A stretch of DNA of 64,000 nucleotides from an uncultured bacterium (lineage in GTDB: Bacteria; Acidobacteriota; Thermoanaerobaculia; Multivoradales; JAHZIX01): contig CBDUPA010000009.1 of NCBI GenBank assembly GCA_965368975.1, forward strand, positions 64,001 to 128,000. Direction: 5' to 3'. A model generated the notes under the pieces. It saw only the letters and a program-made list of their open reading frames with translations. It searched no databases and was not told the origin of the DNA. How positions within the stretch are numbered: the stretch's first letter is position 1; each line of letters begins with the position of its first letter. The position numbers and the translations under genes are program-made. Shown one piece after another: positions 10,814-64,000 of this stretch.

Positions 10814-10827
10814 GGCAGGCTTCCCCT

Positions 10828-10860: not shown

Positions 10861-10903
10861 TGTCTGTGACCTTCTCGACGCGGATTCTCCGGTCCTATGG
10901 GGC

Positions 10904-10919: not shown

Positions 10920-10994
10920 GTACAGGAGCGATAGGTCGACATTGATCTTCCCGATCAACCCAAGGCCATCCTGATCAACCCAAGGAGAACTACG

Positions 10995-12734: not shown

Positions 12735-12759
12735 TGGGTCCTCTGGCAGGCCACCTGGA

Positions 12760-15839: not shown

Positions 15840-15959
15840 GGGTAGGCTCCTCCGTTCAGATCCGAGAATGTCAGTTCATCTGGCCTTCAGACACCTCAAG
15901 AGGTGCGCCGAGAGGCTCGTCCTTGATATCATGAAGCCTTCGGGAGGAATTCGGAAGAC

Positions 15960-16520: not shown

Positions 16521-16628
16521 CGCAGAACCAGAGGGCACCCACACTGGGGGCGACCCAAGCCAAGAGGTATCGAAGTCCGGTAGGAGCAGGTCAGGTGCCT
16601 ACCTTGGATGGGGGAGGTTCAATCCCCG

Positions 16629-17903: not shown

Positions 17904-17994
17904 CGTCGTTCCTCCGCAAGCAGATTTCGTCGGTCCCCGGTCAGCGAGCGCGCCGCTCCGGGCCCGCGAGGCTTCCCTTCCAGGCTCCCAGGCT

Positions 17995-18420
17995 TCAGGC
18001 TACCAGATAAGCGCTGGCGCGGATCTGCAAGCGTGCCCGCGGCTCGAAGCCCGTGCCGACGAGTGCAAAGGCCGCCCGCTCGGCCAGCACGGGAAGCACG
18101 ATCCAGCCATCGAAGCTGTCGCCGCTGGCATACGGCGGCACCACCGGCTCGATCTCCGCGATCTTGATCCAGTGGTCGTCTTCAGGGTCGAAGGAGGCCC
18201 GCAGATCGACGTAGGCTCGGTCCAGGTCGATCGCCCGTTGCGAAGATGGGTGCCAGAGCGAGAAAACGAAGCGCACCTCGTCGTACTCGCTGGTCTTGAG
18301 CATTGCTTCGCCGTTCGCCGTCAGCTGATACATAAAACCACCGGCACTGTCGGTGGCGTAGATCTCCGCCGTCGGGTCGAAGAAAATCTGCCTCGGGGGC
18401 ACAGGGCGGGCGTTGGTCAT
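17995..18420 (-). CDS. Hypothetical protein
   Basis: GGAGG RBS, protein-like composition, co-oriented with neighbours. Confidence 0.7.
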   Translation of the reverse strand: MTNARPVPPRQIFFDPTAEIYATDSAGGFMYQLTANGEAMLKTSEYDEVRFVFSLWHPSSQRAIDLDRAYVDLRASFDPEDDHWIKIAEIEPVVPPYASGDSFDGWIVLPVLAERAAFALVGTGFEPRARLQIRASAYLVA

Positions 18421-18540
18421 CGATCCTCCGTGACGCGTGGCTCAAGATGGGTTCGGACTCATCGAGTGTCTCGACTCATTTGCGAAGCTTGTAGTGTATC
18501 ACCGTCGCCGCGATGACCTCCGTCGCGGGCACCGCACGCC

Positions 18541-42636: not shown

Positions 42637-42708
42637 CTCCGCTGCTTCCGCTTCCCCGGTCGAGCCGGCCGCGTCCGAGCCCGGACGCATGTATTGGAGG
42701 AGATCCCC

Positions 42709-45288: not shown

Positions 45289-45356
45289 CACCAGGGAGTA
45301 TCGCCCGCTGGCGGTTGCCCACGGCGACCTGTGAGCTCCTCGGATATCCTTGGCGG

Positions 45357-46379
45357 GTGACCTCCACCACCTTGCCACCAAGGGGCCGCTGGGCGCCGTC
45401 GCCGACCGGCCTGCTGCACGTCGGCAGCGCCCGCACCGCCCTGGTCGCCTGGCTGAGTGTGCGCAGCCGCGGCGGCAGCTTCGTCTGGCGTGTCGAGGAT
45501 CTGGACCCACCACGCGAAGTGCCCGGCATGGCGCTGGCGGCGCGCGACGACCTGACGTGGCTCGGCCTGGACTGGGACGAAGGTCCGGATGTCGGCGGAG
45601 TGCATGCGCCGTACGAGCAGAGCCGCCGCACCGAGATCTATGATCGAGCCATCGCTTTCCTGGCAATGCACGACCGCCTGTTTCCGTGCCGGCTGTCACG
45701 CAAGGACTTGCAGCAGCTGGCCACGGCACCACACGGCAGCGAAGGACTGCCGCCGTACCCACCCGACGCCCGCCCGCGGCAACTGGCACCGGACTGGTTC
45801 GATTCCTGGCGCCGAGGCGAGAAGGCGGACGCAGCCCTGCGCTTCCGGGTGAGCAGTGGTCCCGTGAGCTTCGACGATCGCGTCGCCGGACGGGTCACCC
45901 AGCACGTCGACCGGGAGGTGGGTGACTTCGTGCTCAAGCGTCGCGACGGCTTGTTCGCGTACCAACTGGCTGTCGTGGTCGACGATCTGGCGATGGGCAT
46001 CACGGAGGTGGTCCGGGGCTCAGACCTTCTCGAGTCCACCGGGCGTCAACTCCAATTGATCGAGGCCCTGCGACCGCTCTACCCGGATGCGCCGGTGCCG
46101 ACCTACATGCACCTGCCATTGTTGCTCAACCCTGCCGGAGAGAAGCTCTCGAAGCGTGACGGCAGCGTGACGCTGGCCTCGTTGCGCGAGGCGGGCGTGG
46201 ATGCAACCCAGCTCGTGGGCTGGCTCGGTGCCTCGCTAGGTCTCCTCGAGCAACCTCGCACCGTCACGGCGCGGCAGCTCGTCGCACTCTTTGACGAGTC
46301 ACGCCTCGCCGAGAACGCTCGCGGGCAGGGAGATTCGCGTCTACCGGAAGATCTGGCTTCTTTTCTGCGTTCTCTGTGA
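45357..46379 (+). CDS. gluQ: Glutamyl-Q tRNA(Asp) synthetase
   Basis: RWAPSPTG.LHVGS, RVEDLDPPR, QS.R, YQLAVVVDD..GIT.VVRG.DLL, KLSKR; lacks the anticodon-binding domain. Confidence 0.9.
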   Translation: MTSTTLPPRGRWAPSPTGLLHVGSARTALVAWLSVRSRGGSFVWRVEDLDPPREVPGMALAARDDLTWLGLDWDEGPDVGGVHAPYEQSRRTEIYDRAIAFLAMHDRLFPCRLSRKDLQQLATAPHGSEGLPPYPPDARPRQLAPDWFDSWRRGEKADAALRFRVSSGPVSFDDRVAGRVTQHVDREVGDFVLKRRDGLFAYQLAVVVDDLAMGITEVVRGSDLLESTGRQLQLIEALRPLYPDAPVPTYMHLPLLLNPAGEKLSKRDGSVTLASLREAGVDATQLVGWLGASLGLLEQPRTVTARQLVALFDESRLAENARGQGDSRLPEDLASFLRSL

Positions 46380-46422
46380 CATCTACAGCCCAAGTCCGCT
46401 CGTTTTCAGAGGAGAACTCCCG

Positions 46423-49020: not shown

Positions 49021-49043
49021 GCGTCAACTGAAGGAGGAAGGCC

Positions 49044-50540
49044 ATGACGAAGAAGCAAACCATGTCGAAGGGGCGAACCAGAACCGGCAGCACCGCGCTG
49101 ACCGCGCTGCTCACTCTCTTGCTGAGCAGCTCCACCAGCGCTGGCGAAGGCAGTACGGTAACGGACGTCGCGGCGGCAGAGGTAACGACTGCCGAACGCT
49201 ATCCGAGCATCCAGCTTATCGTCCCAACCCCCAAGCTGTTGATCGACAAGATCGACGTCGAAACCTTGGTCACGGGTTCCGACATCCGCACCGTCGAGTT
49301 GTGGCTGAACGGGCAGCTGGCCACCGAGATTCGGCGCCCCCCCTTCTTGGCGCGTATCGATGTGGGCCCCGAGCCACGCGAACACGAGCTTGGCGCCGTT
49401 GCTCGGGATGGCGAAGGGCGGATGGTAGCGCGGGACCGTGTACGGCTCAACGCTGGGCGGCATCTCTTCGACATCCGGCTGTTGTCTCCCACAGGCTTGC
49501 AGCCGGCCGGCGGTGAGATCTATGCCCATGCGCAGGTGAAGGTCCCCGAAGGCGCGGAGCTCGACCGCGTGGAGATCTTCCTCGGCGATCAGCTGCACTC
49601 GACACTGGAACAGCCCCCCTTCGTGCAGCCGATCGCGATTCCACCGGAGGACCCACAGGCGACCTACGTGCGCGCCGTCGCGCACTTGCAGGACGGGCGC
49701 TCCACCCACACGTTGCAGCTGGTGCAGGCACCCAGCGAGGGCGACGAGGTCGAGCGGCCGCTGGTGGAACTCTACGCGACGGTGACCCGCGGGCGTACCC
49801 TGGTCCCCAACCTGACGCGTGACAGCTTCAAGATCTTTGAGGAGGGTGAGCCGCAGCAGGTCGAAGGCTTCGAGTACGTCAACGATCTGCCGATCCACGT
49901 GGTGCTGCTGATGGACGCGTCCAGGTCCATGCACGAGGCGCTCCATTGGGCCAGCGCCAGTGCGTTGAGCTTCCTTGAGGCCATGCTCACCGAACTCGAC
50001 CGAGCCGCCGTCATTCGCTTCGACCACCAGATCCACCTGATGGCGCCGTTCACCAACGACATGCAACGCCTACAGTCGGACATCCGGAATCTGACTTCGG
50101 GCGGTGGTAGCCGGCTCTACGACGGCCTCATCCAAGCGATGTATTACTGCGCTGGCATCGAGGGCAAGCGAGCAGTAGTGGTGCTATCCGATGGTCCCGA
50201 CAGGAGCAGCCAGTTCGATTTCCAACAAGTCCTCGACTACAGCCTGCGCTCCGGTGTCGGTATCTACACCATCTCGATAGAGACCTCGACCACCAAGCCC
50301 CCCATGCGGCACATCAAGCAACTCCGGATCCTGGCCGAGCAGACCGGCGGCCACTTCTTCCGCATTCAAACACCGCTGCAGTTGACTGCGGCCTACGAGG
50401 AGATCCGGCAGGAGCTGCGCTCACAGTACCTGCTGACCTATTCCGCGCCCAAGGGCAAAGACGGCTTACGGCGCGTGCGCGTCGAGACTGACGGTCTGCA
50501 GCTGGAGGTCCAGACGCGGCAAGGGTACATCACCCAGTAG
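49044..50540 (+). CDS. Secreted Ig-like + VWA domain protein
   Basis: AGGAGG RBS, signal peptide, MIDAS DASRS, ends TRQGYI. Confidence 0.88.
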
Positions 50541-50779: not shown

Positions 50780-51235
50780 TCAGTTGCCCGAGGCGGGAGG
50801 GGCGTCGCCCTCGGAGGCGGCGGCGGCCGCATCGGCCGAACCGGCGTCGCCTGCCTCGGTCTCACCCGTGTTGTCGTCGATGGTGTCGGGACCGCTATCG
50901 GTCGCCTCGCCCTCGACACCTTCGCTCTCCGTAGCCTCGTCCGCGGCAGTCGCCGCATCTTCGGCCGCGGCTTCGGTCTCGACGTCGGTCATCACCGACG
51001 AGGCGCCGCGGCCACTTTCCATCATCGCGATGGCGATGGTGGTCACCATGAAGGCGACGAAGAAGCTGACGGTCAGCTTGTGAAGCAAGGAGGTGGCGCC
51101 CGTGGCACCGAAGGCGGTCTGGGTGCTACCACCACCGAACACCGAAAGGTCCGCGCCCTTACCACTCTGTAGCAACACGACTACGATGAGGAAGAGACAG
51201 ATCAGGGTGTGCACTGTGTACATCAGATAGATCAT
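50780..51235 (-). CDS. secG: Preprotein translocase SecG with long acidic tail
   Basis: LIVVVLLQSGKGADL..FGGG...FGA.G....L.KLT; tpiA-secG-tRNA-Leu synteny. Confidence 0.93.
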   Translation of the reverse strand: MIYLMYTVHTLICLFLIVVVLLQSGKGADLSVFGGGSTQTAFGATGATSLLHKLTVSFFVAFMVTTIAIAMMESGRGASSVMTDVETEAAAEDAATAADEATESEGVEGEATDSGPDTIDDNTGETEAGDAGSADAAAAASEGDAPPASGN

Positions 51236-51300
51236 CAGAACCCTCCGCGGGTCTGGGAGTTGGCGAAATCTTAGGAAGGCGCTTCAGGCCGGCCGCAACT

Positions 51301-52077
51301 TCAGGCTTGCGAGCGGCCGGAAGCCGTAATAATAGCCCAAAACGAGTCTGGGTCAAGGCTGGCTCCCCCTACGAGGAAGCCATCGACGTCACTTTCGGCG
51401 ATCAGCTCGTCGACGTTGGCCGGCTTGGCCGAGCCACCGTAGAGGAGGCGCGTGGCGGCCGCGGTGTCGGCGCCGAGCTGCGAGACGAGCTGTGAGCGCA
51501 GGAAGGCGTGGGCTTCCTGTGCCAGCTGCGGTGTCGCCGTCTTGCCGGTCCCGATCGCCCACACCGGCTCGTAGGCGATGGCGAAGGTGCGCGGGTCCCA
51601 GCTCGAACTCGCCGCCAGCACGGCGCGCAGCTGGCGCTCCAGCACTTCGAACGTGCGCTCGGCTTCCCGCTCTTCGAGCGTCTCACCGACGCAGATCATC
51701 GGCCTGAGGCCATGTTCCCGCGCCGCCAGCGCCTTGCGCGCCACGTGCGCATCGTCTTCGCCATGGTCGGCGCGCCGCTCACTGTGCCCGCACAGCACCC
51801 ACGAGCAACCGATGTCGGTCAGCTGCGGTCCGGAAGTGTCGCCGGTATGGGCGCCCTTGGCGGCGGTGTGCAGATCCTGGCCACCCCAGGAGGCAGTGGA
51901 CCCGGCCAAGCCCTCGGCGACCGTCGGCAGCAGGGTAAAGCCGGGAAAGAGGACCACGTCGGCCCCCGGGTCTCCCGCGGCCAGGTGCTCGCGCAGGCGT
52001 GCCGAGAAGGCTTTGGCATCGGCGCGCAGCAGGTTCATCTTCCAATTGGCGGCGGCGATTGGACGTCGGGTGGTCAT
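51301..52077 (-). CDS. tpiA: Triosephosphate isomerase
   Basis: ANWKMN, GHSERR, AYEPVWAIGTG, LYGGS, LVGGASL. Confidence 0.98.
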   Translation of the reverse strand: MTTRRPIAAANWKMNLLRADAKAFSARLREHLAAGDPGADVVLFPGFTLLPTVAEGLAGSTASWGGQDLHTAAKGAHTGDTSGPQLTDIGCSWVLCGHSERRADHGEDDAHVARKALAAREHGLRPMICVGETLEEREAERTFEVLERQLRAVLAASSSWDPRTFAIAYEPVWAIGTGKTATPQLAQEAHAFLRSQLVSQLGADTAAATRLLYGGSAKPANVDELIAESDVDGFLVGGASLDPDSFWAIITASGRSQA

Positions 52078-52094
52078 GTTTTCTCCTGCGGGGA

Positions 52095-52163
52095 GGACAG
52101 CCACATTGGGCCGCCCCTACCCGGAATCTGAATCTGGGTAGGGGCACCCCCGTGCGGGTGCCC
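52095..52163. repeat. Inverted pair of GTAG-type REP elements
   Basis: GTAGGGGCACCCCCGTGCGGGTGCCC (52138-52163, +) and GTAGGGGCGGCCCAATGTGGCTGTCC (52095-52120, -). Confidence 0.7.
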
Positions 52164-52192
52164 TGGGTGGTGGAGGCGGGAGTCCTGAACCT

Positions 52193-53440
52193 TCACTTCG
52201 CCAACGCCGTCACGCCCGGCAACTCTTTGCCGGCAAGGAATTCCAGCGACGCGCCGCCGCCGGTCGAGACGTGGTCCATGCGGTCGAGGACGCCAGCATG
52301 GGCGGCCGCGCCGACGGTGTCGCCACCACCAACCACCTTGAAGGCGGGGCTGTCGGCGACGCCGTGGGCCACCGCGACGGTACCCGCGTCGAAGGGCGGC
52401 TTCTCGAACACGCCCATCGGGCCGTTCCAGAAGATGGTACCGGCGCGGCCGAGGGCTTCAGCGAAGGCTTTGCAAGCTTCGGGACCAATATCCAGGGCCA
52501 TCGTTCCCGCTGGCACGGCATTGGCGGCCACGGTCTCGATGCGTTGCGGCTGGGCGAAGTCGTCGGCGATCACCAGGTCGCTGGGTAGCAAGACTTCGGT
52601 GTCGGCGGCGGCGGCACGCTCCAGGATCGACTTGGCGAGGTCGAGGCGATCGCGCTCGACCAGCGAACTGGCCAGGTCCAGGCCCTGAGCAGCCAGGAAC
52701 GTGTTGGCCATGCCGCCGCCGATCAGCAGCTGGTCGAGGCGCGGCAGAAGGTTGTCCAGGGTGTCGATCTTGCCTTCGATCTTGGCGCCGCCGAGGATGC
52801 CGGCGAAGGGGCGGGCAGGCTCATGGAGCAAGCGGCCAAGGGCTTCGATCTCGCGCACCAAGAGGCGGCCGGCGGCCTTGCGGGAGAGCCGCGCCGGCAC
52901 CCCGACGACCGAGGCGTGGGCGCGGTGGGCTGTGCCGAAAGCGTCGCACACGTAGGCGTCGGCGAGCGACGCCAGCTCGGCGCTGAAGGCATCGTCGTCG
53001 GCTTTCTCACCAGCATGGAAGCGTAGGTTCTCGAGCAGCACGACGCCGCCATCTTGTAGCTGGTCGACAGCCGCACGCGCCACCTCGCCGAGACAGTCTT
53101 CAGCAAAAGCGACGGGCGCGTCGAGCAGAGAGGCCAGCACCTTGACCATCGGCCGTAGGCTGTATCTCGGATTCGGCTCCCCCTTGGGCCGGCCACAGTG
53201 CGAAGCGAGAACCAGGCGAGCCCCGGCGGCGCGCAGCTCTTGCAGGGTGGGCAGGGCTTCGCGCAGGCGCGTGTCGTCGGTCACCTCGACCTCGCCGTCA
53301 GCTGCACCCGGAGTCTCGCCCAGCGGTGCATTGAAGTCCACGCGAACAAAGACCCGCTGGCCGCGCAGGCTGGGGAGGTCGAGATCGTCGAGGGTGAACA
53401 TACGGATCTGGGCCGACGCGCTGGACGGGTGTTGAGTCAT
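52193..53440 (-). CDS. pgk: Phosphoglycerate kinase
   Basis: RVDFNAP, SHCGRP, LLENLRF, FGTAHRAH, GGAK, WNGPMG, HVSTGGGASLE. Confidence 0.98.
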   Translation of the reverse strand: MTQHPSSASAQIRMFTLDDLDLPSLRGQRVFVRVDFNAPLGETPGAADGEVEVTDDTRLREALPTLQELRAAGARLVLASHCGRPKGEPNPRYSLRPMVKVLASLLDAPVAFAEDCLGEVARAAVDQLQDGGVVLLENLRFHAGEKADDDAFSAELASLADAYVCDAFGTAHRAHASVVGVPARLSRKAAGRLLVREIEALGRLLHEPARPFAGILGGAKIEGKIDTLDNLLPRLDQLLIGGGMANTFLAAQGLDLASSLVERDRLDLAKSILERAAAADTEVLLPSDLVIADDFAQPQRIETVAANAVPAGTMALDIGPEACKAFAEALGRAGTIFWNGPMGVFEKPPFDAGTVAVAHGVADSPAFKVVGGGDTVGAAAHAGVLDRMDHVSTGGGASLEFLAGKELPGVTALAK

Positions 53441-54537
53441 CGTTCGTCTCCGGGAGCGGCGAGGCGTAGCAACAGCTCGGCGAGGCGGTTGGCGTAGCCC
53501 CATTCGTTGTCGTACCAAGCGACGACGCGTAGCATGTGGCCGCCGTCGAGGCTCTGCAGCAGGGGTAGGTCGACCACCGCGGAGGCGGTCTCACCGAGGA
53601 AGTCCGTCGAGACGAGCTCTTCGTCTGTCACCCTCAGGATGCCGGCCAGCTCTTCAGCGGCGGCGCTTCGCAGCTGGTCCGCCGCTGCCTCGACGCTCGC
53701 CGGCCGCTCCAGTTCCAACACCAGGTCGAGCAGCGCCACGTCGGCCACTGGCACGCGTACGCCGAACCCGTCGAGACGGCCGGCCAGCTGCGGCAGCACC
53801 CAGCCCACCGCCTCGGCAGCCCGGCTGGCGACGGGGATCAGGTTGAGCGGGGCCGCCCGGCTCCGTCGAGGCTCACCTTGGCCCCCCTTGCCGTGTGCGC
53901 CGTCGAGCAGCATCTGGTTCGGCGTGTAGCCGTGCACGGTATTGACCATGCCGTGGCGGATGCCGAAAGCACGATGCAGCACCGCCACGATCGGCGCGAT
54001 GCAGTTGGTGGTGCAGGAACTGTTGCTGATCACGCGATGACGAGCGGGATCGAAGGACCCCTCGTTGATGCCCAGGCAGAGCACCGCGTCCACCGCCGGC
54101 AGGTCGGCTGCGTCCGGGTTCCACGCCAGCACGACTCGCTCGGCACCGTGCGCCTGTCGGGAGGGGGCCCGTCCGGAGCGAGCATCTCTCGAGCGGGCCG
54201 CGTCGTTCCGCAGGTGCCCACGGGCGGCAGCGACGGTCACGGCGCCTGTGGCTTCCACCACCAGCAGGTTGTCCTCCTCGGGCCACGGGATATCGACGGG
54301 CGAGGCGGCGGCAGACACCGGCACGCGCCGGCCATCGACCAGCAGGGCGTCAGGCTCGTGGCCGATTTCGCCAGGGAAGCGGCCGTGCACCGAGTCGCGG
54401 GCCAGCAGGCGTGCGAGCACCGGTGCCGGGACCAGGTCGTTGACCGCCACGCAGCGTAACCGCGGATGTTGCCGGGCGGCGCGCACCAGCGCCCGACCGA
54501 TACGGCCCAGGCCGTTGATTGCGTAGGGAATGGACAT
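53437..54537 (-). CDS. gap: Divergent type I glyceraldehyde-3-phosphate dehydrogenase (GAPDH/Epd-like)
   Basis: INGLGRIGR, DSVHG, SNSSCTTNC, RVP, WYDNEWGY; several canonical motifs altered. Confidence 0.85.
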   Translation of the reverse strand: MSIPYAINGLGRIGRALVRAARQHPRLRCVAVNDLVPAPVLARLLARDSVHGRFPGEIGHEPDALLVDGRRVPVSAAASPVDIPWPEEDNLLVVEATGAVTVAAARGHLRNDAARSRDARSGRAPSRQAHGAERVVLAWNPDAADLPAVDAVLCLGINEGSFDPARHRVISNSSCTTNCIAPIVAVLHRAFGIRHGMVNTVHGYTPNQMLLDGAHGKGGQGEPRRSRAAPLNLIPVASRAAEAVGWVLPQLAGRLDGFGVRVPVADVALLDLVLELERPASVEAAADQLRSAAAEELAGILRVTDEELVSTDFLGETASAVVDLPLLQSLDGGHMLRVVAWYDNEWGYANRLAELLLRLAAPGDER

Positions 54538-56972
54538 CAATCTGATTCGTCGGAGGTGCCACCGTCGGTGGACTCTGGATAGCCGCGACGGTCGGTGATC
54601 ACGATACGTAGCTCGCAAGCGTAGCGCTGGCCGTCGGCATCCGGCAGCCACGTCTGGTGTAGGTCAGGAAGCATTTCGGCCAGCCTCACGCGCGGGTGCG
54701 GCTGCGCATCCAGCGCGGCGCGGACGGCTCGTACGAGCAATTCTACGAACACCGGACAGCTGAAGTCGACGTAGATCGGCTTCAATTCCGTATCGACGCG
54801 CAAGAACACCCGCTCCGGCAGCTGCCGGCGCAGCCACCAAGCACGTGCTCCGGCAAAGCGGTCGGCCGGCGTGGCGGCCTGCACGAAGTCCATCTCCGCG
54901 CCGTCGAAACTCCAACGTCGACGGTTGACGACCAGGCGGTCGAGACTCACGCGCGGCCAGTAGTCGGCATCGCCGAGCAGGCGGCAGCTACTGACCACGC
55001 TGTGGGTCAGGACCTTGGCGACCGCCTCGGCGAGGTCGAAATCAACCTGCTCATCACTGTGCGAGCGCAGACGTAGACCACTATGGCCGTCCTCGGCACC
55101 CGCGGCTTGCACATCGACGACGATCAGATCGTCGGGCTCCACGCGTTGCTCGGGAGGAATCATCGAACGACGGTCGCGCGCGGCGACGATGAGGTCGTGA
55201 CTCGGGATGTGCAACGGGCCGAAGCGAGTGATCACGACGTCGGCATTGGAATCCTGGAGGTGGAAACGCGTCTCCCGGATCTCTGTGTCGAGAGCCTCGC
55301 GCAGGGCGTCGAGATCCGGGTGCAGGACGCTGGTGGCCCAGACGCTGAGCGAGTTGTGGGCAATGTGCATCTCGCCCAGCACGGCAAAGAAGTCGCCAGC
55401 CCGCAGCGCGTCCGGCCCTTCGGCCGCCAGCAGGACGTCCGGCGAGGTGTAGCGGGCCAAGCTCCAACCCGGCTCGGTGAGCGGAAAGGCCGCCTCGACC
55501 TTCGGCCGCAACTCGTCGACGCTGCGCTGCACTTCTTGCACCTGCTCCGCGCCGGGTTCGACCTCCAGCAGCGCCTGCCAGCGACGCTGAAACTCATCCA
55601 GGGCTTCTTGGGTGAAGGCACTCCGATTGTCCCCGACGAGGTGCCGCGACAGCAGTGGCCAGAAGTGCTGCACCGGGACTTCCGGACCGTGGGTGTGCGT
55701 CAGCTCCCGGTACAGAGGCTGGGCGACTTGCCGCAAAGCCGCGGCAACTTCCGCGCTCAGCCAGCGCACGGAATGCAGGAGGAGCGACATCGGCTCGGCA
55801 ATCGCGCGCCGCACCTCGGGACCGAATTCGAAGGTGCCCGCCCGCCGGCAGTCTTCGTAGGCCAGCGTGCGTGCGGCGTAGTCCTGGCCGGCGTGGCGCG
55901 TGGCAGCTGCTCCCGTGAGGCGCTGAAAGGTCGCGTTCAGTGAGCCGATGGCGGCTTCCAGCTGTTGCGGTTCACCGGCCGCCTGCACGACCCGCTGGCG
56001 CGCCGCCTCGACCTCGTCGATCGGAGCCAGTGCCGCGCGCCGCAGGTCGGCGTCGCCGATGCTCTCGACCTGGGAACGCAGCGCTTGCAGCGCATGCGGC
56101 CCGGACGGCAAGTAGAAGTCCCAAGCCAGGCAGCCTTCGCGCTGGAAGTGCTCCAGCTGAGCCATCACCTCGGCCGGCTCCCGATACGCACACTGCGAAT
56201 CCTCGGCCAGCTCGCGGCACAGCTGGTGTGCTGACCGGCTGCCGTCCGCGGCTTCGAGCACGGCGAGTTGATCGTCATCGACGACCAGCGCGGGACCCGT
56301 GAGACGGTTGAGACGGCCATCTTCATCCAGCCAGTGGAAGGGCAGGAGCTGCGGTGGCAACCAGGTACGAATGTCCTCCAGCTGCAACAGGATCTTGGCC
56401 AGCTCGACGACGCCCCAGCCTTCGAGGAAGACGTCGCGCGCCTCCACTAGCTCGCGCTGCGGCTCGAGGCGCACCACGGGGTCTTCACCGTCGCTCCATC
56501 GTGCCCAACCCATCGGGCCGAAGAAGCCGATCGTGTCGTTCTTGACCGTGTAGCGCTGCAGGTACTTGGCCACCAGCTGCTCGCGTCGACGGCGCTTCTT
56601 GGGGGCGCCCTGGTAGCGAGTTTCCGGCAGCTTGAGAACACCGTTGCGGTAGGCATCGTAGTTTTGCCACAGCACGGCTTCCCGGAAACGCGGATCGCGC
56701 GTCAGCTCGTTGAGAGCCTCGGCTTGCTGGTTGTAGGCCGCTTCGAACTGCTGCTCGTAGTCGCTCCGCGCCGCCGCGATCTCAGCCTCGTCACTCTCTC
56801 CCTCGTTGCCACCAGCCTCTGCCTTGGCAAGCCTTTCCGCAGCGGCGGCGCAGGCGGGAAAGACGATGCCCTGCAACAGTTCGACGGGGAAGCCGGTGGC
56901 GCGCAAGCCGATCCAGCGCCAGGCGGTCCAGGTGTCGTACCAGGAGACGTGGTGCGGAGGCATGTCGACCAT
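54537..56972 (-). CDS. Stand-alone LanB glutamylation-domain protein (PEARL-like), copy 4
   Basis: LRATGFP, FREAVLWQN, YLQRYTVKNDTIGFFGP, YEDC, SPD, GEMH, KPIYVDF, EMLP..WL.D..G.RYACELR; 811 aa, no elimination domain. Confidence 0.88.
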   Translation of the reverse strand: MVDMPPHHVSWYDTWTAWRWIGLRATGFPVELLQGIVFPACAAAAERLAKAEAGGNEGESDEAEIAAARSDYEQQFEAAYNQQAEALNELTRDPRFREAVLWQNYDAYRNGVLKLPETRYQGAPKKRRRREQLVAKYLQRYTVKNDTIGFFGPMGWARWSDGEDPVVRLEPQRELVEARDVFLEGWGVVELAKILLQLEDIRTWLPPQLLPFHWLDEDGRLNRLTGPALVVDDDQLAVLEAADGSRSAHQLCRELAEDSQCAYREPAEVMAQLEHFQREGCLAWDFYLPSGPHALQALRSQVESIGDADLRRAALAPIDEVEAARQRVVQAAGEPQQLEAAIGSLNATFQRLTGAAATRHAGQDYAARTLAYEDCRRAGTFEFGPEVRRAIAEPMSLLLHSVRWLSAEVAAALRQVAQPLYRELTHTHGPEVPVQHFWPLLSRHLVGDNRSAFTQEALDEFQRRWQALLEVEPGAEQVQEVQRSVDELRPKVEAAFPLTEPGWSLARYTSPDVLLAAEGPDALRAGDFFAVLGEMHIAHNSLSVWATSVLHPDLDALREALDTEIRETRFHLQDSNADVVITRFGPLHIPSHDLIVAARDRRSMIPPEQRVEPDDLIVVDVQAAGAEDGHSGLRLRSHSDEQVDFDLAEAVAKVLTHSVVSSCRLLGDADYWPRVSLDRLVVNRRRWSFDGAEMDFVQAATPADRFAGARAWWLRRQLPERVFLRVDTELKPIYVDFSCPVFVELLVRAVRAALDAQPHPRVRLAEMLPDLHQTWLPDADGQRYACELRIVITDRRGYPESTDGGTSDESD

Positions 56973-56978
56973 GGTCGT

Positions 56979-59564
56979 CTAGCCCTCGTTCTGGCCGGGA
57001 CTCAATCCGAGATGATCCACCAGCACCAGGCGCACCTCGCTGGTGTAGCGGTTGCCCTCGGCATCGGGCAGCCACAGCTGGTGCAGGTCGGGCATCATTT
57101 CGGACATGCGCACCCGCGGATCGCCGCCACTTTCGAGTGCCGCGCGGACCGACTTGGTAAACAACTCGACGTACACCGGGCTGTCGAAGTCGACGTAGGT
57201 CGGCTTCTTTTCGGTGGCGACGCGCAGGAAGACGCGCTGCGACACGCCTGCGCGACGCCACCAGCTGCGGGCGCCGGCAAAGCGCTCGGCGGGTGTCTCG
57301 GCGTGCACGAAGTCCATCTCGCGACCGTCGAAGACCCAGCTCTCGCGGTGGACCACCATGTTGTCGATCCACACCCGAGGCCAGTGATCGGCGGTCGGCA
57401 GCAGCCGACAGCGCGTGACCACGCCGTGAGTGAGAAAGGCCGACATGGCGGAGAGAAAATCGAGGTCGAAGCTCGGCTCGCCGAGAGAGCGCACGCGCAT
57501 ATTGCCGTAGAGGTCGCGCACCATGACGACGTCCTCGGGCTCTACGACCTGCTCGGGCCGGGATGCCGAGGCGCGCAACATGTTCCGCAGCACGTAGTCG
57601 TGCGTCGCCGTGTGCACCAAGCCGAAGCGGCTGAGCATATTGGTGACGTGCGGTTCGTCGAACCAGAGGCGCGGCTCCGGGAGGTCGTTCTCGAGCACTT
57701 CCACCAGGGCGTCGAGATCCGGGTGCTGCGCGCCGCTCGCCCACACCCCGGCCGAGGCGTAGGCGATGTGCAGCTCGCCGAGGACGGTGAAGAAGTCTCC
57801 GCGTTGCAGGGCTTCCGGGCTCTCGGCCGCCAGCATGACGTCGGGCGAGCTGTAGCGCGCCTGGGGCCAACCCAGGTTCTCGGTAGCGAAGACCTCGCGC
57901 ACCTTGGGCCACAGCTCTTCGCTGGTCCAGCGCACCTCGTCGAGGCTCTGACCGGGCTTCCCCGGCTGTAGCCCCAGTATGTCGCGCCAACGATCGGTGA
58001 AGTCGTCGAGGGCTTCGTTGGTATGGCCATTGAGACCGGCGTCGATCAGGTGCACCGCCAGCTGCGGCCAGAAGACCAGCAGCGGCACCTCGGGACCGTG
58101 GTGTATGCGCAAACGATTGTAGACGTGGTCGAGCTCCTGGCGCAGGTGGTCGGCGACCTGACTGGTGAGCCAGCGCACGCTGTGCAGAATCGGCGCCAAG
58201 GGCACGGCGAGCGTGTCGCGGATCTCGGGTCCAAGCTCGTAGGTACCGGCGCGCAGGCAGTCTTCGTAGACCAGCGTTCGCCCGGCGTAGAGCTCGCCAG
58301 CGGCACGGGTGGCGCCCATGCCGGTGAGCTTGCCGAAGGTCTCGCCCATCGCCGCCAGTGCGCTATCCAACCGCTCCGGGTCGCCTGCGGCCGCTTCCAC
58401 GCCGCGCCGGGATCCGTCCAGCTCTTCGAGCTTCTCCAAGCAGCGCTCGGCGAGCGGACGGTCTTCGAACTCTTCGACCTGGCGGCGCACGGCGTCCAGG
58501 GTGTGGGGGCCCGGCGGTAGGCGGAACTCCCAGGCAATGGCGCCTTCAATGCGGAAGTGGTGCAACTGTCCCATCACCTCTTCCGGACTGGAGTAGCCGC
58601 ACTCGGGGTCGGCTGCCAGATCCCTGGCCAGCTGCACCGCCGAGCGCTCACCGGTCGCGTGCTCGAGCAGGAAAATCTGGTCCCGGTCCACCGCCAAGGC
58701 GAGTCCCAGCGCGCGATGCAAGCTACAGCCGTCTTCGCCCAACCACTGCAACGGCAGGGTCTGCGGCTTGAGATGGTCCATCACGCCGGGCCAGCTCATC
58801 AGCACGTGCGCCAGCGCCATGACGGCCCAGCCCTCGAAGTAGACGCTGCGCCGCTCGAGCAACCCCGCCCCGGGTTCCAGGTGCGCGACGGTGTCCGCAT
58901 CTTCGTTCCAGTCGGCCCAGCCGACCGGGCCGAAGAAGCCGATGGTGTCGTTCTTGACCGTGTAGCGCTGGACGTACTTGGCCACCAGCTCCTCGCGGTG
59001 TCGTCGGGCGCTAGAGGAATGGGTGGGGTCGGAACCGGGCAGTTTACGCACGGCGGTGTGGTACCCGTGCCGGTTCTGCCACAAGACAGCTTCTTGGAAG
59101 CGCAGGTCGGCGGCGATGTCGTTGAGGGTCTGACTCTGCTCGATCGAGGTTTGCTGGTAGACGTCTTCGTAGGCAGCAGTAGCGGCGGCGACTTCTTCCC
59201 GTGCACTGGTCACCGCATCGAGCAGCGCCGGCTCCAACACCTCGGCTGCCTTGGCGTGGACCTTGCCCTTGTTGAGCCGATTCAGGGTCTTGAACAGGGC
59301 GTTGCGGCGCGAGCGGTTGGCGTCGTTGAATTGCAGTTCGTCGAGCGCGCGGCGGGCGGCATCGGCGGCGCTATCGAGCGCCTGCCGCAGAGTGTCCTCA
59401 GCTTCGGCGATACGGTCGGCGGCGGCGGCACAGTCGGGGAAGCAGAGCCGTTGCAACATTTCGACCGGAAAGCCGGTGCCACGCAAGACGGCCCAGCGCC
59501 AGGTCGTCCAATCACCGTAGAAGGGAACGTGGTGGCGGGGAACGATGTGAGACTCGGGAATCAT
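56979..59564 (-). CDS. Stand-alone LanB glutamylation-domain protein (PEARL-like), copy 3
   Basis: LRGTGFP, QRYTVKNDTIGFFGP, YEDC, SPD, GELH, KPTYVDF, EMMP...RYTSEVR; 861 aa. Confidence 0.88.
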   Translation of the reverse strand: MIPESHIVPRHHVPFYGDWTTWRWAVLRGTGFPVEMLQRLCFPDCAAAADRIAEAEDTLRQALDSAADAARRALDELQFNDANRSRRNALFKTLNRLNKGKVHAKAAEVLEPALLDAVTSAREEVAAATAAYEDVYQQTSIEQSQTLNDIAADLRFQEAVLWQNRHGYHTAVRKLPGSDPTHSSSARRHREELVAKYVQRYTVKNDTIGFFGPVGWADWNEDADTVAHLEPGAGLLERRSVYFEGWAVMALAHVLMSWPGVMDHLKPQTLPLQWLGEDGCSLHRALGLALAVDRDQIFLLEHATGERSAVQLARDLAADPECGYSSPEEVMGQLHHFRIEGAIAWEFRLPPGPHTLDAVRRQVEEFEDRPLAERCLEKLEELDGSRRGVEAAAGDPERLDSALAAMGETFGKLTGMGATRAAGELYAGRTLVYEDCLRAGTYELGPEIRDTLAVPLAPILHSVRWLTSQVADHLRQELDHVYNRLRIHHGPEVPLLVFWPQLAVHLIDAGLNGHTNEALDDFTDRWRDILGLQPGKPGQSLDEVRWTSEELWPKVREVFATENLGWPQARYSSPDVMLAAESPEALQRGDFFTVLGELHIAYASAGVWASGAQHPDLDALVEVLENDLPEPRLWFDEPHVTNMLSRFGLVHTATHDYVLRNMLRASASRPEQVVEPEDVVMVRDLYGNMRVRSLGEPSFDLDFLSAMSAFLTHGVVTRCRLLPTADHWPRVWIDNMVVHRESWVFDGREMDFVHAETPAERFAGARSWWRRAGVSQRVFLRVATEKKPTYVDFDSPVYVELFTKSVRAALESGGDPRVRMSEMMPDLHQLWLPDAEGNRYTSEVRLVLVDHLGLSPGQNEG

Positions 59565-62155
59565 GTTTCCTCTTCCTCCGCAGGGCCCGCGTGGTCCTGG
59601 CTGCCGATGTTGTCCAAGATAATGGTGCGCAGCTCACTGGTGTAGCGGTTGCCCTCGGCATCGGGCAGCCATGCTTGGTGCAGGTCGGGCAGCATTTCAG
59701 CCATGCGCACGCTCGGGTCGAGGCCGCTTTCGAGCACGGCGCGCACCGACTTGGCGAACAGTTCGACGTACACCGGGCTACCGAAGTCGACGTACGTCGG
59801 CTTCTGCTCGGTGGCCACGCGCAGGAAGACGCGCTCGGGCAGACCGTGGCGCCTCCACCAGGCGCGCGTGCCGGCGAAGCGGTCGGCCGGCGTCGAAGCG
59901 TGGACGAAGTCCATTTCGCGACCATCGAAGACCCAGCTCTGGCGGTTGACGACCATGCTGTCGATCCACACGCGCGGCCAGTGGTCGGACGCCGGCAGCA
60001 GCTTGCAGCGGGTGACCACGCCGTAGGTCAGGTGGAGGGCCATAGCGGCCAGGAAGTCGAGGTCGATCTTCGGTTCGCTCTTCGAGCGCAAGCGCATGAC
60101 GCCCTGCTCGTCGCGCACCATCACCACATCTTCGGGCTCCAGGCGCTGCTCGGGCGGCGTGGTCGACGCGCGTTGCAGGTTGCGCAGCACGTAATCCCGC
60201 TTGGGTAGAACGATCTGGCCGAAGCGGTTCAGCACAGTGCTGACGTGCGGCTCGTCGAACAGCACCCGCGACTCGCGCAGGTCGCTCTCCAGGACTTCCA
60301 CCAGGGCGTCGAGATCTGGGTGCTGGGCACCGAACAGCCATGCCGCCAAGGAGGGGAAGGTTATGTGCACCTCGCCGAGCACAGAGAAGAAGTCCCCCGC
60401 CCGCAGTGCCTCGACGCTGTCGGCGGCGATCATGACGTCCGGCGAGTTGTAGCGCGCCTGCTCCCAACCGGGGCGCTCGGACGATCCGTCTTTGGCGGAG
60501 AAGGCCGCGCGCACCTTGGGCCACAGCTCCTCGCTGGTCCAGCGCACTTCCTGGTCGACCTGCCCACGCTCCAGGCCGAGAATCTCGCGCCACTTCTCGG
60601 CGAAGCCATCCAGCGCCTCGTTGGTGAAGCTGTTGATGTTGGCGTCCATGATACTCACCGACATCGGCGGCCAGAACACGAGCAAGGGGATCTCGGGACC
60701 GTGGATCGGCGCCAGCTCGCGGTAGAGGATGTCGAGCACCTGACGCATGGCGGCGGCCACCTGGCTGGTGAGCCAGCGCACGCTGTAGAGAATCGGCGCC
60801 AACGGCTCGGCAATGCAGCGGCGGATCTCGGGACCAAGCTCGACCACGCCGTCGCGCTTGCAGTCCTCGTAAATCAGGGTGCGCGCCGCATAGAGCTGCC
60901 CCCCGCTGCGCGTCGGGTCGACCCCGGTGAGGCTGGCGAAGGTGCGATTCATGTCGTCGATCGCCTTCTCCAGCGCTTCGGTGTTGCCAGCCGCCTCGGC
61001 CACGGCCTTGCGCGCGCCATCGAGCGCGTTGATCTTGTCGTAGCAGGCATTGCGTACCTGCGAGTCGCCGAACTCGTCGACCTGCGCCCGCACGACCTGC
61101 AGCGTGTGGGGACCGGGCGGCAGGAAGAACTCCCAGGCGATCGCCCCCTCCTGCCGGAAGACGAGCAGCTGCTGCATGACCTGTTGCGGCTGGTCGTACC
61201 CACACTCGGGATCCGCCGCCAGATCCTGGCACAGCTGCTGGGCGGTGCGAGCGCCGTCCGCGGCTTCGAGCAGGCGGATCTGGTCGGCGTCGACCGCCAG
61301 CGTCAAGCCGAGAGCTCGGTACAGGCCCTCGCCATCTTCCCCCAACCACTGCAGCGGCAAGGTCTGCGGCTTGAGCCAGGGCAATACGCCGGGAATCGAC
61401 ATCAGCACCTGCGACAGCGCCAGGATCGGCCAGCCTTCAAAGTAGACGTTGCGATCGGCGAGCAGATCCGGACCGGGTTCGACGCGCACCGATGGTTGCT
61501 CCGTCTCGCTCCAGATCGCCCAGCCGACGGGCCCAAAGAAGCCGATGGTGTCATTCTTGACCGTGTAGCGCTGGATGTACTTGGCGACCAGCTCTTCTTT
61601 CTGCCGGCGGCTGCTCGACGTGTCCGACGGATCGGATCCGGGCAGCTTGAGCAGTGCTGTCTTGTAGGCGTTGTGGTTCTGCCACAGCACGGCTTCCTGG
61701 AAGCGCGGGTCAGCGGCGATCTCGTTGATCGCCTGCCCCTGCTCGGTGGACGCTTGCGCGTACGCCTGCGCGAAGGCGGCGGTGGCGTCCCGCTGCTCGG
61801 CCTGTGCCGTCCGCACGGCATCGAGCAGAGCAGGGTCCAGAACCTCTGGCGCCTTGGCGTGGACCTTGCCCTTTTTGAGCTTCTCGAGCGACTTCAGCAG
61901 CAGCTTGCGGCGCGGCTGAGTCGCCTCGCTGCGCTCCAGCTCGTCGAGGCCCCGGCGCGCGGCGTCGCAGCCGGCGTCCAGCGCTTCTTGCAGCGCCGTC
62001 TCGGCCCGAGTCAGGCGGTCGGCCGCCGCGGCGCAGGCAGGCATGGACAGCCGCCGCACCAGCCGCACGGGGAAGCCCGTGCCACGCAGGCCGATCCATT
62101 TCCAGGTCGTCCACTCGTCACAGAAGGGTACGTGGTACTTCGGAATACTCTTCAT
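59561..62155 (-). CDS. Stand-alone LanB glutamylation-domain protein (PEARL-like), copy 2
   Basis: GAGGAG RBS before the ATG at 62155 (MKSIPKY); same motif set with GEVH and RYTSELR; 864 aa. Confidence 0.88.
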   Translation of the reverse strand: MKSIPKYHVPFCDEWTTWKWIGLRGTGFPVRLVRRLSMPACAAAADRLTRAETALQEALDAGCDAARRGLDELERSEATQPRRKLLLKSLEKLKKGKVHAKAPEVLDPALLDAVRTAQAEQRDATAAFAQAYAQASTEQGQAINEIAADPRFQEAVLWQNHNAYKTALLKLPGSDPSDTSSSRRQKEELVAKYIQRYTVKNDTIGFFGPVGWAIWSETEQPSVRVEPGPDLLADRNVYFEGWPILALSQVLMSIPGVLPWLKPQTLPLQWLGEDGEGLYRALGLTLAVDADQIRLLEAADGARTAQQLCQDLAADPECGYDQPQQVMQQLLVFRQEGAIAWEFFLPPGPHTLQVVRAQVDEFGDSQVRNACYDKINALDGARKAVAEAAGNTEALEKAIDDMNRTFASLTGVDPTRSGGQLYAARTLIYEDCKRDGVVELGPEIRRCIAEPLAPILYSVRWLTSQVAAAMRQVLDILYRELAPIHGPEIPLLVFWPPMSVSIMDANINSFTNEALDGFAEKWREILGLERGQVDQEVRWTSEELWPKVRAAFSAKDGSSERPGWEQARYNSPDVMIAADSVEALRAGDFFSVLGEVHITFPSLAAWLFGAQHPDLDALVEVLESDLRESRVLFDEPHVSTVLNRFGQIVLPKRDYVLRNLQRASTTPPEQRLEPEDVVMVRDEQGVMRLRSKSEPKIDLDFLAAMALHLTYGVVTRCKLLPASDHWPRVWIDSMVVNRQSWVFDGREMDFVHASTPADRFAGTRAWWRRHGLPERVFLRVATEQKPTYVDFGSPVYVELFAKSVRAVLESGLDPSVRMAEMLPDLHQAWLPDAEGNRYTSELRTIILDNIGSQDHAGPAEEEET

Positions 62156-62213
62156 GCCCTGCTCCTCATAGCCGGAACGGAAGCGGTTCCGGAATCCTCG
62201 TTGCGGACGCGGG

Positions 62214-64000
62214 CTACCCCGAGGGTGGGGCTGCCTCGTCATAGCCGATGCGGTCCGTGAGGATGATCCGAAGCTCACTGGTATAGCGCTGACCGTCCGC
62301 GTCCGGCAACCACGTCTCGTGCAGATCCGGCGACATCTCCGCCATCTTGACCTTGGTATCTTCCCCCTTGAGCAAGGTGGCGCGGATCGCCTTGGTCATC
62401 AGCTCGACGTAAATGAGGCTCGAAAAGTCGACGTAGATCGGCTTCAGCTCGGTAGCTACACGGAAGAACACGCGCTGCGGCAGCCCGTGACGACGCCACC
62501 AGTCGCGCGCACCGGCAAAGCGCGCGGCGGGCGTCGCGGCGTGCACGAAGTCCATGTCACGACCCTCGAACACCCAACTTTCCCGGTGCGCGATCAGGTT
62601 GTCCAGCCACACGCGCGGCCAGTGATCAGCGGCTCCCAGGATGTTGCAGCGACTGACGATCCCGTAGGTCAGGAAATGGGCCAGTGCCTCGGTGATGTCG
62701 AGGTCCACGTCGTCGTCGACCAGGGAGCGCAGGCGGACGCCGGCGTCGGTCTTGACCACCACCAGATCTTCGGGCTCCAGACGCTGCTCGGCCGGGATGT
62801 CCGTGGATCGCCCGATCGAGGCCACCACGCGATCTCGCCGCGGGACGATGATCGGGCCGAAGCGGGTGATGTAGTCCGAAGCGGTCGGGCCCGTGATGTG
62901 GAACTTGCCCAGCTGCAGGTCGCTTTCCAGCAGCCCTTTCACCGCTTCGATGTCCGGATGTTGCGCGCCGAACAACCACACACTGAGCGAGTTGTAGGCA
63001 ATATGCAGCTCGCCGAGCACGGCGTGAAAGTCGCCGCGCGCCAAAGCTTCGGCACTCTCGGCGGCGAGCATCACGTCCGGAGAGAGGTAGCGGGCACCTT
63101 CCCAACCCGGAAGGTCGGCGGCAAAGGCCTCCTCGACGCGGGCGCGTAGGTCCGCTGAATTGCGCCGGATCTCCGTGACGGGATCGTTCGGCTGAAGCTC
63201 TAGAATCTCCTGCCAGCGGCGCTGATACTCGCTCACCACGTCCTTGGAAAAGGCGTTGACGTTGTCGTTACTGAGCTGCATCGACATCGGTGGCCAGAAG
63301 CTGGCCACGGGCACCTCGTCTCCATGGAAGAGCGAGAGTTCACGCAGCACCGGCTCGATGACCTGGCGCATGGCGTCGGCGACCTCGCGGGTGAGCCAGC
63401 GCAGACTGAAGAGAATCAACGACAGCGGCTCGGCGATGGTGTTGCGCACCTGCGGCCCCAGCTCGACGACCCCGGCGCGCAGACAGTCCTCGTAGGTCAA
63501 GGTGCGGGCGGCGTAGTCCTCGCCTGCACCCCGCGTCGGCGCCGTATCGGTCAGGCGAGTGAACGTCTTGGCGAGATCTTGGATCGCCGCTTCCAAGCGT
63601 GCCGGATCGCCCGCCGCTTCGGCAATGGCGCGGCGCCCTTGTTCGAACTCGTCGATCCGCGCCAGGCACCGGGCACGTAGCTCCGGGTCACCGAAGCTCT
63701 CGACCTGGTCGCGCACGGCGTCGAGAGTGAACGGCCCGGCCGGCAGCACGAAGTCCCAGCCCAGCGAACCTTCGCGGCGGAAGTGGTCGAGTTGTTCCCG
63801 GACCTCCTCCGGCGTGGTGTAGCCACATTCCGGGTCGGCAGCCAGATCCTGACACAGCTGCCAGGCGGTCCGTTCTCCGTCCAGGGCGTCGAGCAGCGCG
63901 ATCTGATCGTCGTCGACCAGCAATGCCGGCCCCATCGGGTGGATCAAGCGACCTTCGTCGTCGATCGTGTGCAGAGGCAGCAGCTGCGGCCGCAGCCAGG
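62214..64000 (-). CDS. Stand-alone LanB glutamylation-domain protein (PEARL-like), copy 1 (5' end beyond the window)
   Basis: YEDC, SPD, GELH, KPIYVDF, EMSP..WLPDADGQRYTSELR; frame open to the window edge. Confidence 0.85.
   Translation of the reverse strand, partial: WLRPQLLPLHTIDDEGRLIHPMGPALLVDDDQIALLDALDGERTAWQLCQDLAADPECGYTTPEEVREQLDHFRREGSLGWDFVLPAGPFTLDAVRDQVESFGDPELRARCLARIDEFEQGRRAIAEAAGDPARLEAAIQDLAKTFTRLTDTAPTRGAGEDYAARTLTYEDCLRAGVVELGPQVRNTIAEPLSLILFSLRWLTREVADAMRQVIEPVLRELSLFHGDEVPVASFWPPMSMQLSNDNVNAFSKDVVSEYQRRWQEILELQPNDPVTEIRRNSADLRARVEEAFAADLPGWEGARYLSPDVMLAAESAEALARGDFHAVLGELHIAYNSLSVWLFGAQHPDIEAVKGLLESDLQLGKFHITGPTASDYITRFGPIIVPRRDRVVASIGRSTDIPAEQRLEPEDLVVVKTDAGVRLRSLVDDDVDLDITEALAHFLTYGIVSRCNILGAADHWPRVWLDNLIAHRESWVFEGRDMDFVHAATPAARFAGARDWWRRHGLPQRVFFRVATELKPIYVDFSSLIYVELMTKAIRATLLKGEDTKVKMAEMSPDLHETWLPDADGQRYTSELRIILTDRIGYDEAAPPSG

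Follow-up and report, generated by a model that had tools for sequence, protein, structure and literature searches.

Four tandem, PEARL-like LanB paralogs built into a gap operon of an uncultured acidobacterium

Peptide aminoacyl-tRNA ligases (PEARLs) form peptide bonds without the ribosome or a nonribosomal peptide synthetase (NRPS) and are being developed as C-terminal labelling tools. Those published as acting on ribosomal scaffold peptides include, in the accessible text of two reports, TglB (3-thiaglutamate), AmmB1-4 and BhaB (pyrroloiminoquinone) (PMC11962472, PMC11117183). An NRPS-associated PEARL-like ligase, SnaE of the threopeptin pathway, is described in the available part of its report as acting, with no carrier peptide, on the free carboxylate of a nonribosomal product, and as depending, within a system of ureido chain reversal, on a ureido-forming condensation (C) domain that bears the motif EHHxxHDG (PMC11212132). 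Furthermore, a preprint, likewise available in part, presents the PEARLs SinB1 and SinB2 of the sinefungin pathway as acting on a small molecule, with the two paralogs adding residues successively (bioRxiv 10.64898/2026.05.21.726688). Here, a tandem array of four LanB paralogs, designated B1 to B4, is characterised in a stretch of 64,000 nucleotides (hereafter the window) that corresponds to positions 64001-128000 of the 264-kb contig C9 (CBDUPA010000009.1) in genome G000, an assembly of 7.1 Mb in 59 contigs from an uncultured bacterium. The nearest named relatives of its glutamyl-tRNA synthetase are acidobacterial, in agreement with the host considered probable in the initial annotation, which had been made from the letters of the window alone. 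The array is a real feature that consists of a known kind of enzyme in an unusual genomic setting.

B1-B4 resemble TglB, AmmB and BhaB in their size of about 800-870 aa, in having PF04738 as their only Pfam domain and in an ATP-site pattern of Asp, Glu-x-His and Glu-x-Arg. They also share with them an N-terminal Arg, a Tyr-x-x-Arg motif, an embedded segment resembling the recognition element (RRE) of peptides synthesised ribosomally and then modified post-translationally (RiPPs), and the possible presence of several paralogs per cluster. Unlike the clusters of those enzymes, the array has no scaffold, tailoring or protease genes and lies in a housekeeping operon, and its proteins belong to an apparently distinct clade. 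The explanation favoured, with moderate confidence, is that B1-B4 are four active PEARL-type carboxylate-aminoacyl ligases whose substrate is encoded elsewhere and would most likely be the carboxylate of a nonribosomal peptide or of a small metabolite. This proposal draws on conserved residues, a structural model and analogy with relatives.

The genes of the array, together with gap, are given in Table 1. All four proteins matched PF04738 and no other Pfam family (39-75 bits against a cut-off of 28; E 3e-10 to 4e-21 for the open reading frames (ORFs) of the window), and the elimination domain PF14028 was absent from each of them, the complete B4 included, as had been read at first. B4 continues for about 800 bp past the window edge, to the equivalent of position 64817, and measures 867 aa from a GTG codon or 862 aa in its database entry, with PF04738 over residues 162-806 (E 5.9e-18). 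The open frame of B3 would give 905 aa from its first GTG, at 62278; the database entry has the length obtained from the ATG. B2 and B1 are separated by 6 bp, B3 and B2 overlap in an ATGA, and 58 bp lie between B4 and B3 if the latter begins at the ATG. The ORF coordinates thus bear out both this spacing and the length of about 810-865 aa previously given for the complete paralogs. The motifs listed in the initial annotation are likewise all readable in the translations, namely RATGFP/RGTGFP, RYTVKNDTIGFFGP, YEDC, SPD, GE(M/L/V)H and KP(I/T)YVDF, followed by a last motif, EMxPDLHxxWLPDAxGxRY(A/T)(C/S)ExR, with the C-termini 15-25 residues beyond it.

Table 1. Coordinates and features of the LanB paralogs and of the adjoining gap gene in the window
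Gene	Position	Strand	Product	Length	PF04738 E value	Family invariants	Remark
B1	54537-56972	minus	PEARL-like small LanB	811 aa	7.8e-21	78/78	
B2	56979-59564	minus	PEARL-like small LanB	861 aa	2.8e-20	75/78	paralog used for the AlphaFold2 model
B3	59561-62155	minus	PEARL-like small LanB	864 aa	3.8e-21	76/78	length from the ATG at 62155
B4	62214-64000	minus	PEARL-like small LanB			77/78	cut by the window edge
gap	53437-54537	minus	type I glyceraldehyde-3-phosphate dehydrogenase (GAPDH)				SCTTN catalytic motif present; Pfam Gp_dh_N/C

The pairwise amino-acid identity of B1-B4 is 50-64%, and eight families of DNA repeats recur across the array at a spacing of 2.4-2.64 kb, with copies 60-82% identical; six of these families have four copies and the other two have three. 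This paralogy is far beyond chance. The four tandem same-strand LanB paralogs of the initial annotation are therefore there, as their ORFs, their PF04738 matches and their identity attest. Its wording of "at least four" has to be narrowed to exactly four; the next gene upstream, 66 bp away, encodes an ADP-forming acyl-CoA synthetase (acd). With regard to differences between the paralogs, the alignment shows that B1 lacks about 53 residues of an N-terminal helical hairpin present in B2-B4 and has an insertion of 13 residues relative to them. The most divergent segment corresponds to B2 residues 629-668, where the mean pairwise identity is 31%.

The relatives of B2 number more than 1000 proteins of about 860 aa at 35-39% identity. 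They come mostly from Pyrinomonadaceae and from metagenome-assembled genomes of Blastocatellia, with some from Streptomyces and Herpetosiphonaceae, and are called "lantibiotic dehydratase" or "hypothetical" where they are named. An exhaustive search with B1 returned 2490 cluster representatives at E<=1e-3, 1052 of them at E<=1e-30, and a search of the ESM Atlas led again only to clusters of "lantibiotic dehydratase N-terminus". A metagenome scan gave no match above 39% identity, and a scan of genome contigs that found no relative with a single protein as query succeeded when it was repeated with an alignment. On these matches, B1-B4 are assigned to a large uncharacterised clade, no member of which was tied to a characterised enzyme in this analysis. 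A profile of 35 family sequences matched the split LanB TbtB at 2.4e-10 and, over profile positions 283-355, PqqD, a protein of RRE fold, at 0.0056. The AlphaFold2 model of B2 reached a predicted local distance difference test score of 90.2 and a predicted template modelling (TM) score of 0.88. Searched with Foldseek, it matched TbtB, GodF, MibB, MadB and NisB (E 6e-25 to 4e-17, TM 0.52-0.63), with TbtB (6ec7; E 6e-25, TM 0.63) as the best match and faint, non-significant matches to ATP-grasp-type ligases at lower ranks. A search of the Protein Data Bank (PDB) with the C-terminal 183 aa of B2 yielded nothing but chance matches to SATB1.

These split (TbtB, GodF) and full-length (NisB, MibB, MadB) LanBs, the best structural matches of the array, have the aminoacyl-adenosine pocket in common with B1-B4. 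Unlike B1-B4, they work with a PF14028 elimination domain and do not have the ATP-site Asp, His and Arg. In the accessible text of the two reports on PEARL enzymology, Arg743, Phe783 and Glu851 of TbtB are common to LanBs and PEARLs, and Asp542 and Arg803 of TglB (Asp558 and Arg815 of BhaB), together with a conserved His, are ATP-site residues specific to PEARLs. The same sources place Tyr and Leu at the positions of TglB Asp542 and Arg803 in split LanBs, and they describe TglB Arg10 (BhaB Arg34) and BhaB Tyr205, Arg208 and Arg429 as also important (PMC11962472, PMC11117183). B2 has D575, E597-x-H599 and E843-x-R845, with 22 residues from D575 to E597, as from 542 to 564 in TglB. The Glu-x-Arg lies near the C-terminus throughout the clade, as it does at TglB 801-803, and R28, Y197/R200 and R429 of B2 stand at positions that parallel R34, Y205/R208 and R429 of BhaB. 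Conservation across the clade is complete or nearly complete at R28, Y197, R200, R429, D575, E597, H599, R740, F779, E843 and R845 (B2 numbering). Among the 151 sequences of an alignment that comprised B1-B4 and 147 representatives, with two NRPS fusions dropped for length, D575 is present in 151, E597, H599 and R845 in 149 each, and E843 in 148.

The two other LanBs of the genome, a split one on contig C12 and a full-length one on contig C13, served as an internal control and were aligned with the clade profile using hhalign (probability 98.1 and 98.8, respectively). R740 and E843 are kept in both, and F779 is replaced by Tyr in the split and by Ser in the full-length protein. The position of D575 is occupied by Val or Met, those of E597 and H599 by Ala and Phe or by gaps, and that of R845 by a gap followed by Leu, or by Asn. 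The two proteins thus show exactly the ATP-site substitutions of the dehydratase-type LanBs. Such a pattern is what would be expected of B1-B4 as PEARLs that use ATP and of the other two LanBs as dehydratases. The assignment of B1-B4 as PEARL-type enzymes appears well supported, because they are predicted to fold like TbtB, NisB and MibB and keep the PEARL-specific residues that the two LanB dehydratases of the genome lack.

The shared fold and the common pocket of R740, F779 and E843 would also suit a second reading, in which B1-B4 act like split LanBs as Glu-tRNA-dependent glutamylases that modify Ser or Thr, either without later elimination or together with unlinked PF14028 proteins. The genome does contain PF14028, in two matches only, on C12 and C13. 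Each of these, however, lies beside or is fused to a PF04738 domain of its own, and the Asp, His and Arg that dehydratase-type LanBs have lost are retained in the clade, so that a glutamylase role is regarded as rather improbable. It is even less credible that the array consists of redundant, decaying copies left over from a lost gene cluster. The lack of partner genes and the deletion and insertion in B1 could be taken in that sense. All reading frames are nevertheless intact, a shorter form of 780-810 aa is also found in other clade members as single-stretch matches, and the array is conserved in a related population (see below). Moreover, of 78 residues that do not vary among 31 other members of the clade, each of B1-B4 retains 75-78, and therefore none of the four looks dead; all four paralogs look functional.

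With regard to mechanism, each enzyme would use ATP to phosphorylate a free carboxylate of the substrate, and the amine of an aminoacyl-tRNA would then attack the acyl phosphate, adding one amino acid by an amide bond. This ligase mechanism is proposed on the basis of the conserved residues and the fold. Since the paralogs have diverged most in the loop at B2 629-668, they may be expected either to differ in the residue that they add or to extend a single growing chain one after another. The substrate would have to be encoded elsewhere, because the array lies between housekeeping blocks, is coupled to gap and has no scaffold or tailoring genes. The substrate carboxylate is considered most likely to be that of a nonribosomal peptide or small metabolite, in preference to that of a ribosomal scaffold peptide, because members of the clade are mostly found beside NRPS genes or fused to them and because the genome has 119 condensation-domain matches. 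For the same reason, the main linkage of the wider clade to NRPS genes, a ribosomal scaffold is not the default expectation. The nature of the substrate is the weakest inference of this explanation.

The association of the clade with NRPS genes, a likeness to SnaE, was assessed by tblastn with two C-A-T (condensation-adenylation-thiolation) proteins. NRPS genes were found within 10 kb, in the fetched flanks, at 52 of 79 genome loci, at 30 of the 41 whose flanks reach 5 kb or more on each side, and at 26 of 50 metagenome loci; a count based on ORFs gave 47 of the 79. Other common neighbours at the 79 loci are MacB-type permeases (21), ABC exporters (16) and type II thioesterases (9), and an ornithine-cyclodeaminase/PALP pair stands beside clade members at 12 and 8 of them, respectively. 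In two proteins, the PEARL-like domain is fused to NRPS modules: P0230 (3170 aa) reads C-A-T-C-A-T-TE-PEARL, where TE is a thioesterase, and P0256 (1307 aa) reads C-PEARL. The TE-PEARL order suggests that the C-terminus of the released peptide would be extended. Different contexts exist as well. Two genomes of the same family as G000 carry a phosphonate cluster with a single homolog (L024, G001:C1:63000-82999, and L025, G004:C679), together with an FrhB-like Fe-S flavoprotein, a B12-radical S-adenosylmethionine (SAM) enzyme, a MacB/FtsX permease, a split thiamine-pyrophosphate decarboxylase and phosphoenolpyruvate (PEP) mutase; its content hints at tRNA-dependent assembly of a phosphonopeptide. 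Two Sorangium chromosomes (L084 and L106, about 2600-18700 in each locus) combine two tandem clade members and an enzyme of the MbnB/TglH/ChrH family with a 749-aa B12-radical SAM protein, a small PDZ protein, HlyD/M50 export proteins, a methyltransferase and a cupin. Judging from these genes, this is a pearlin-like cluster without NRPS genes. B12-radical SAM enzymes beside some clade members recall the SinB pathway, from which the array differs in that no nucleoside or radical-SAM genes flank it. Altogether, the clade serves several substrate classes, mostly nonribosomal.

A number of points weigh against the proposal of active ligases with a nonribosomal or small-metabolite substrate. The correspondence with TglB and BhaB was drawn from published numbering, from spacing and from the LanBs of the genome itself rather than from a direct alignment with a PEARL (TglB, BhaB, AmmB, SnaE or SinB). 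A single-sequence search of the PDB with the whole of B1 gave no match at E<=1, which makes the clade remote from all solved structures. No substrate gene was found, and the NRPS link of the array comes by analogy with its relatives only; none of the 119 condensation-domain matches of the genome lies on C9, and the array, unlike snaE, adjoins no NRPS gene. Nor does clade membership dictate one substrate class, because members are also found in the TglH-type clusters of Sorangium and in the phosphonate clusters. Furthermore, the ureido-forming motif EHHxxHDG on which SnaE depends is present in none of the 45 HHxxxDG condensation motifs in the 79 clade loci and in none of the 241 HHxxxDG matches in this genome. 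Ureido chain reversal, the one published mechanism for NRPS products, therefore does not fit the array or the clade.

The substrate could alternatively be a scaffold peptide encoded elsewhere in the genome, as in the classical pearlin pathway: the four PEARLs would extend its C-terminus, unlinked enzymes would tailor the product and a protease would release a metabolite derived from amino acids. The PEARL-type active site agrees with such a pathway, and pathways of ammosamide and bha type normally have several PEARLs in one cluster, according to the portions of the literature available. An MbnB/TglH-family enzyme also accompanies the two clade members of each Sorangium locus, and the one MbnB/TglH homolog of this genome lies on C27 near RiPP precursors. 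The RRE-like segment is retained too; it does not imply a leader peptide, because the RRE is reported, in the accessible part of the source, to be dispensable in TglB and BhaB (PMC11962472). The surroundings of the array speak against this alternative, as does the linkage of most of the clade to NRPS genes. For about 15 kb to each side, the array is accompanied by no gene for a scaffold, a tailoring enzyme or a protease. No small ORF was called in the operon, where the intergenic gaps of at most 66 bp leave no room for a scaffold peptide gene. A six-frame search of the whole genome for scaffold peptides yielded 13 ORFs with PLALA-like ends, which look spurious, none of them being credible. A pearlin pathway with a distant scaffold is thus deemed unlikely, if still worth bearing in mind. 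Of the "new pearlin-type pathway" proposed in the initial annotation, the part that finds support is the presence of PEARL-type enzymes without an elimination domain, and the part that does not is the self-contained pathway.

The array lies in an unbroken run of genes on one strand, gltX-ruvB-yegS-acd-B4..B1-gap-pgk-tpiA-secG, in which no gap exceeds 88 bp. Upstream of B4, on the same strand, are acd (725 aa), a gene for a DAGK/YegS-type kinase, ruvB, gltX and a gene for a DUF1232 protein. Downstream of B1, the run is followed by three paralogs with von Willebrand factor A (VWA) domains on the opposite strand. The TGA stop of B1 and the ATG start of gap overlap by one base (TGATG), which indicates that the array is built into the gap operon; gap itself is context and not a member of the array. 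No support was found for a biosynthetic pathway that continues past position 64000; acd, yegS, ruvB and gltX lie there, and the ruvB-yegS-acd block is kept in relatives without the array. The absence of LanC and of a stand-alone elimination gene, first noted for the window, extends to the whole of C9. PF14028, LanC (PF05147), YcaO (PF02624) and condensation domains are all unmatched on this contig, which speaks against an ordinary lanthipeptide or thiopeptide locus, the alternative that the initial annotation had itself raised.

The genes ruvB-yegS-acd have the order of this genome in six of nine related loci, with ruvB or yegS beside acd in eight of the nine. On the other side, gap-pgk-tpiA-secG is conserved in the relative G002. 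In five relatives, the 10 kb that follow acd on its downstream side contain nothing from the array region. The array thus occupies a lineage-specific junction, with a housekeeping block on either side of it. No insertion signature was seen at the array in the form of a tRNA gene, of flanking repeats beyond the paralogy or of a GC content unlike that of the rest of the window. The gene acd was considered as a fifth member, five genomes of the same family lacking it. It was rejected, as 40 of 61 genomes from the order have it and ruvB, yegS and acd stay in this sequence where the array is absent. Similarly, gap was considered as a specialised or resistance copy, the genome having three GAPDH genes. 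This was rejected too, as it keeps the SCTTN motif and is closest to the operonic gap of G002 (49.6% identity, against 35-38% to the other two GAPDH paralogs of the genome).

In a tree from a quick maximum-likelihood search, B1-B4 and the metagenome protein P0004 form a clade with full support (100) in the Shimodaira-Hasegawa-like approximate likelihood ratio test. Within it, P0004 is sister to B1 (100), B2 groups with B3 (100) and B4 joins these two (93); P0006 is sister to the whole. The array arose by serial tandem duplication within the lineage. Of the sister-clade proteins P0004, P0006, P0007, P0015, P0018, P0020, P0121, P0122 and P0063, none had a match of at least 60% identity among the loci fetched. 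Clade members occur, at E<=1e-20, in five of 41 related genomes, this one included, the others having one or two copies. In a sample of the phylum, five of 401 genomes gave a match at E<=1e-50; two candidates were scored per genome there, so that copy numbers in this sample are lower bounds. The 79 genome loci comprise 67 with a single copy, 11 with two, one with three and none with four.

Contigs from four metagenome runs of two studies, labelled sludge and soil, tile positions 51000-64000 at about 87-96% identity. One of 4271 bp spans pgk-gap-B1 and the start of B2, and another of 8.5 kb runs from B3 through B4 and past it upstream. The array is thus present, in an identical location, in a close relative, and it is real and maintained. 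Identity to the window is uneven along these contigs, at about 87.6% for gap/pgk and for B1, about 90% for B4 and 94-96% for B2 and B3. Stronger constraint, gene conversion or a recent exchange could account for such uneven divergence across the operon.

The coupling to gap raises the question of a physiological role in place of an antibiotic one, in which residues would be attached to cellular proteins at their C-termini or to a primary or central metabolite, in the manner of RimK and S6 and in co-expression with the genes of glycolysis. The ATP-grasp enzyme RimK tails ribosomal protein S6. The stop/start overlap of B1 and gap and the unbroken run of genes would suit a role of this kind, as would the higher identity of B2 and B3 than of gap/pgk in the related population. 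In a simple scan for promoters and terminators, the number of sites did not exceed that in shuffled sequence, and PEARLs can label proteins that bear a short C-terminal tag, according to the accessible text of one report (PMC11962472). The distribution of the clade argues otherwise. It is patchy and consists mostly of single copies in biosynthetic contexts, which makes the array unlike a core function. In addition, no target was found, and membership in the operon is inferred from spacing only. A physiological role is accordingly held to be improbable; if true, it would amount to a ribosome-independent, tRNA-dependent system for the tailing of proteins or metabolites in Acidobacteria.

If the favoured explanation of four active ligases with a substrate encoded elsewhere holds, the four diverged and apparently active paralogs, all from one organism, would offer a natural panel for the study of amino-acid and substrate choice. 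The picture across the clade may prove more important than the window as such. The NRPS-TE-PEARL fusions, the adjacency to NRPS genes without ureido domains and the phosphonate and TglH clusters suggest that tRNA-dependent extension of nonribosomal carboxylates is much commoner than its one published instance would imply. Furthermore, genome mining that relies on clusters would miss an orphan array of this kind, tied as it is to gap. No description of the clade or of such an orphan array was found in the literature searched; for LanB-type dehydratases of Acidobacteria in connection with NRPS, a single and unrelated genome survey was retrieved, and none of the matches listed treated PEARLs and phosphonates jointly.

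Several further observations concern the genome at large. It is unusually rich in NRPS genes for an acidobacterial genome of 7.1 Mb, with its 119 condensation-domain matches and open frames of up to about 14,800 aa, and it has no PEP mutase. The split LanB on C12 (117344-120874) is encoded with a separate elimination protein, and the full-length LanB on C13 (45177-51790), with two LanC genes nearby, belongs to a conventional locus of class I lanthipeptide type. On C27 (locus L176, 26000-44000) there are RiPP loci unrelated to the array. In one of them, a 76-aa Nif11-like precursor with a Cys-rich core end stands beside a fused YcaO and an S8 protease; in the other, a second small ORF ending in ...NWQC precedes genes for an Asn-synthase-like enzyme, a radical SAM enzyme and an FAD enzyme. 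The MbnB/TglH homolog and a partner of 211 aa lie between the two. Two more GAPDH-family genes are found in tandem on C2 (270029-271530), one of them without a recognisable CTTN motif in a pattern check. The three VWA paralogs of the window (42694-50540, plus strand) measure 864, 909 and 498 aa, and between the first two, at 45315-46379, is a short class-Ic synthetase-like gene with a PF00749 match, possibly GluQRS-like. Just past gltX, at C9:135376-138885 (plus strand of locus L013, from 18377), a protein of 1169 aa combines a SIR2-like domain with a NACHT/STAND NTPase and looks like anti-phage defence.

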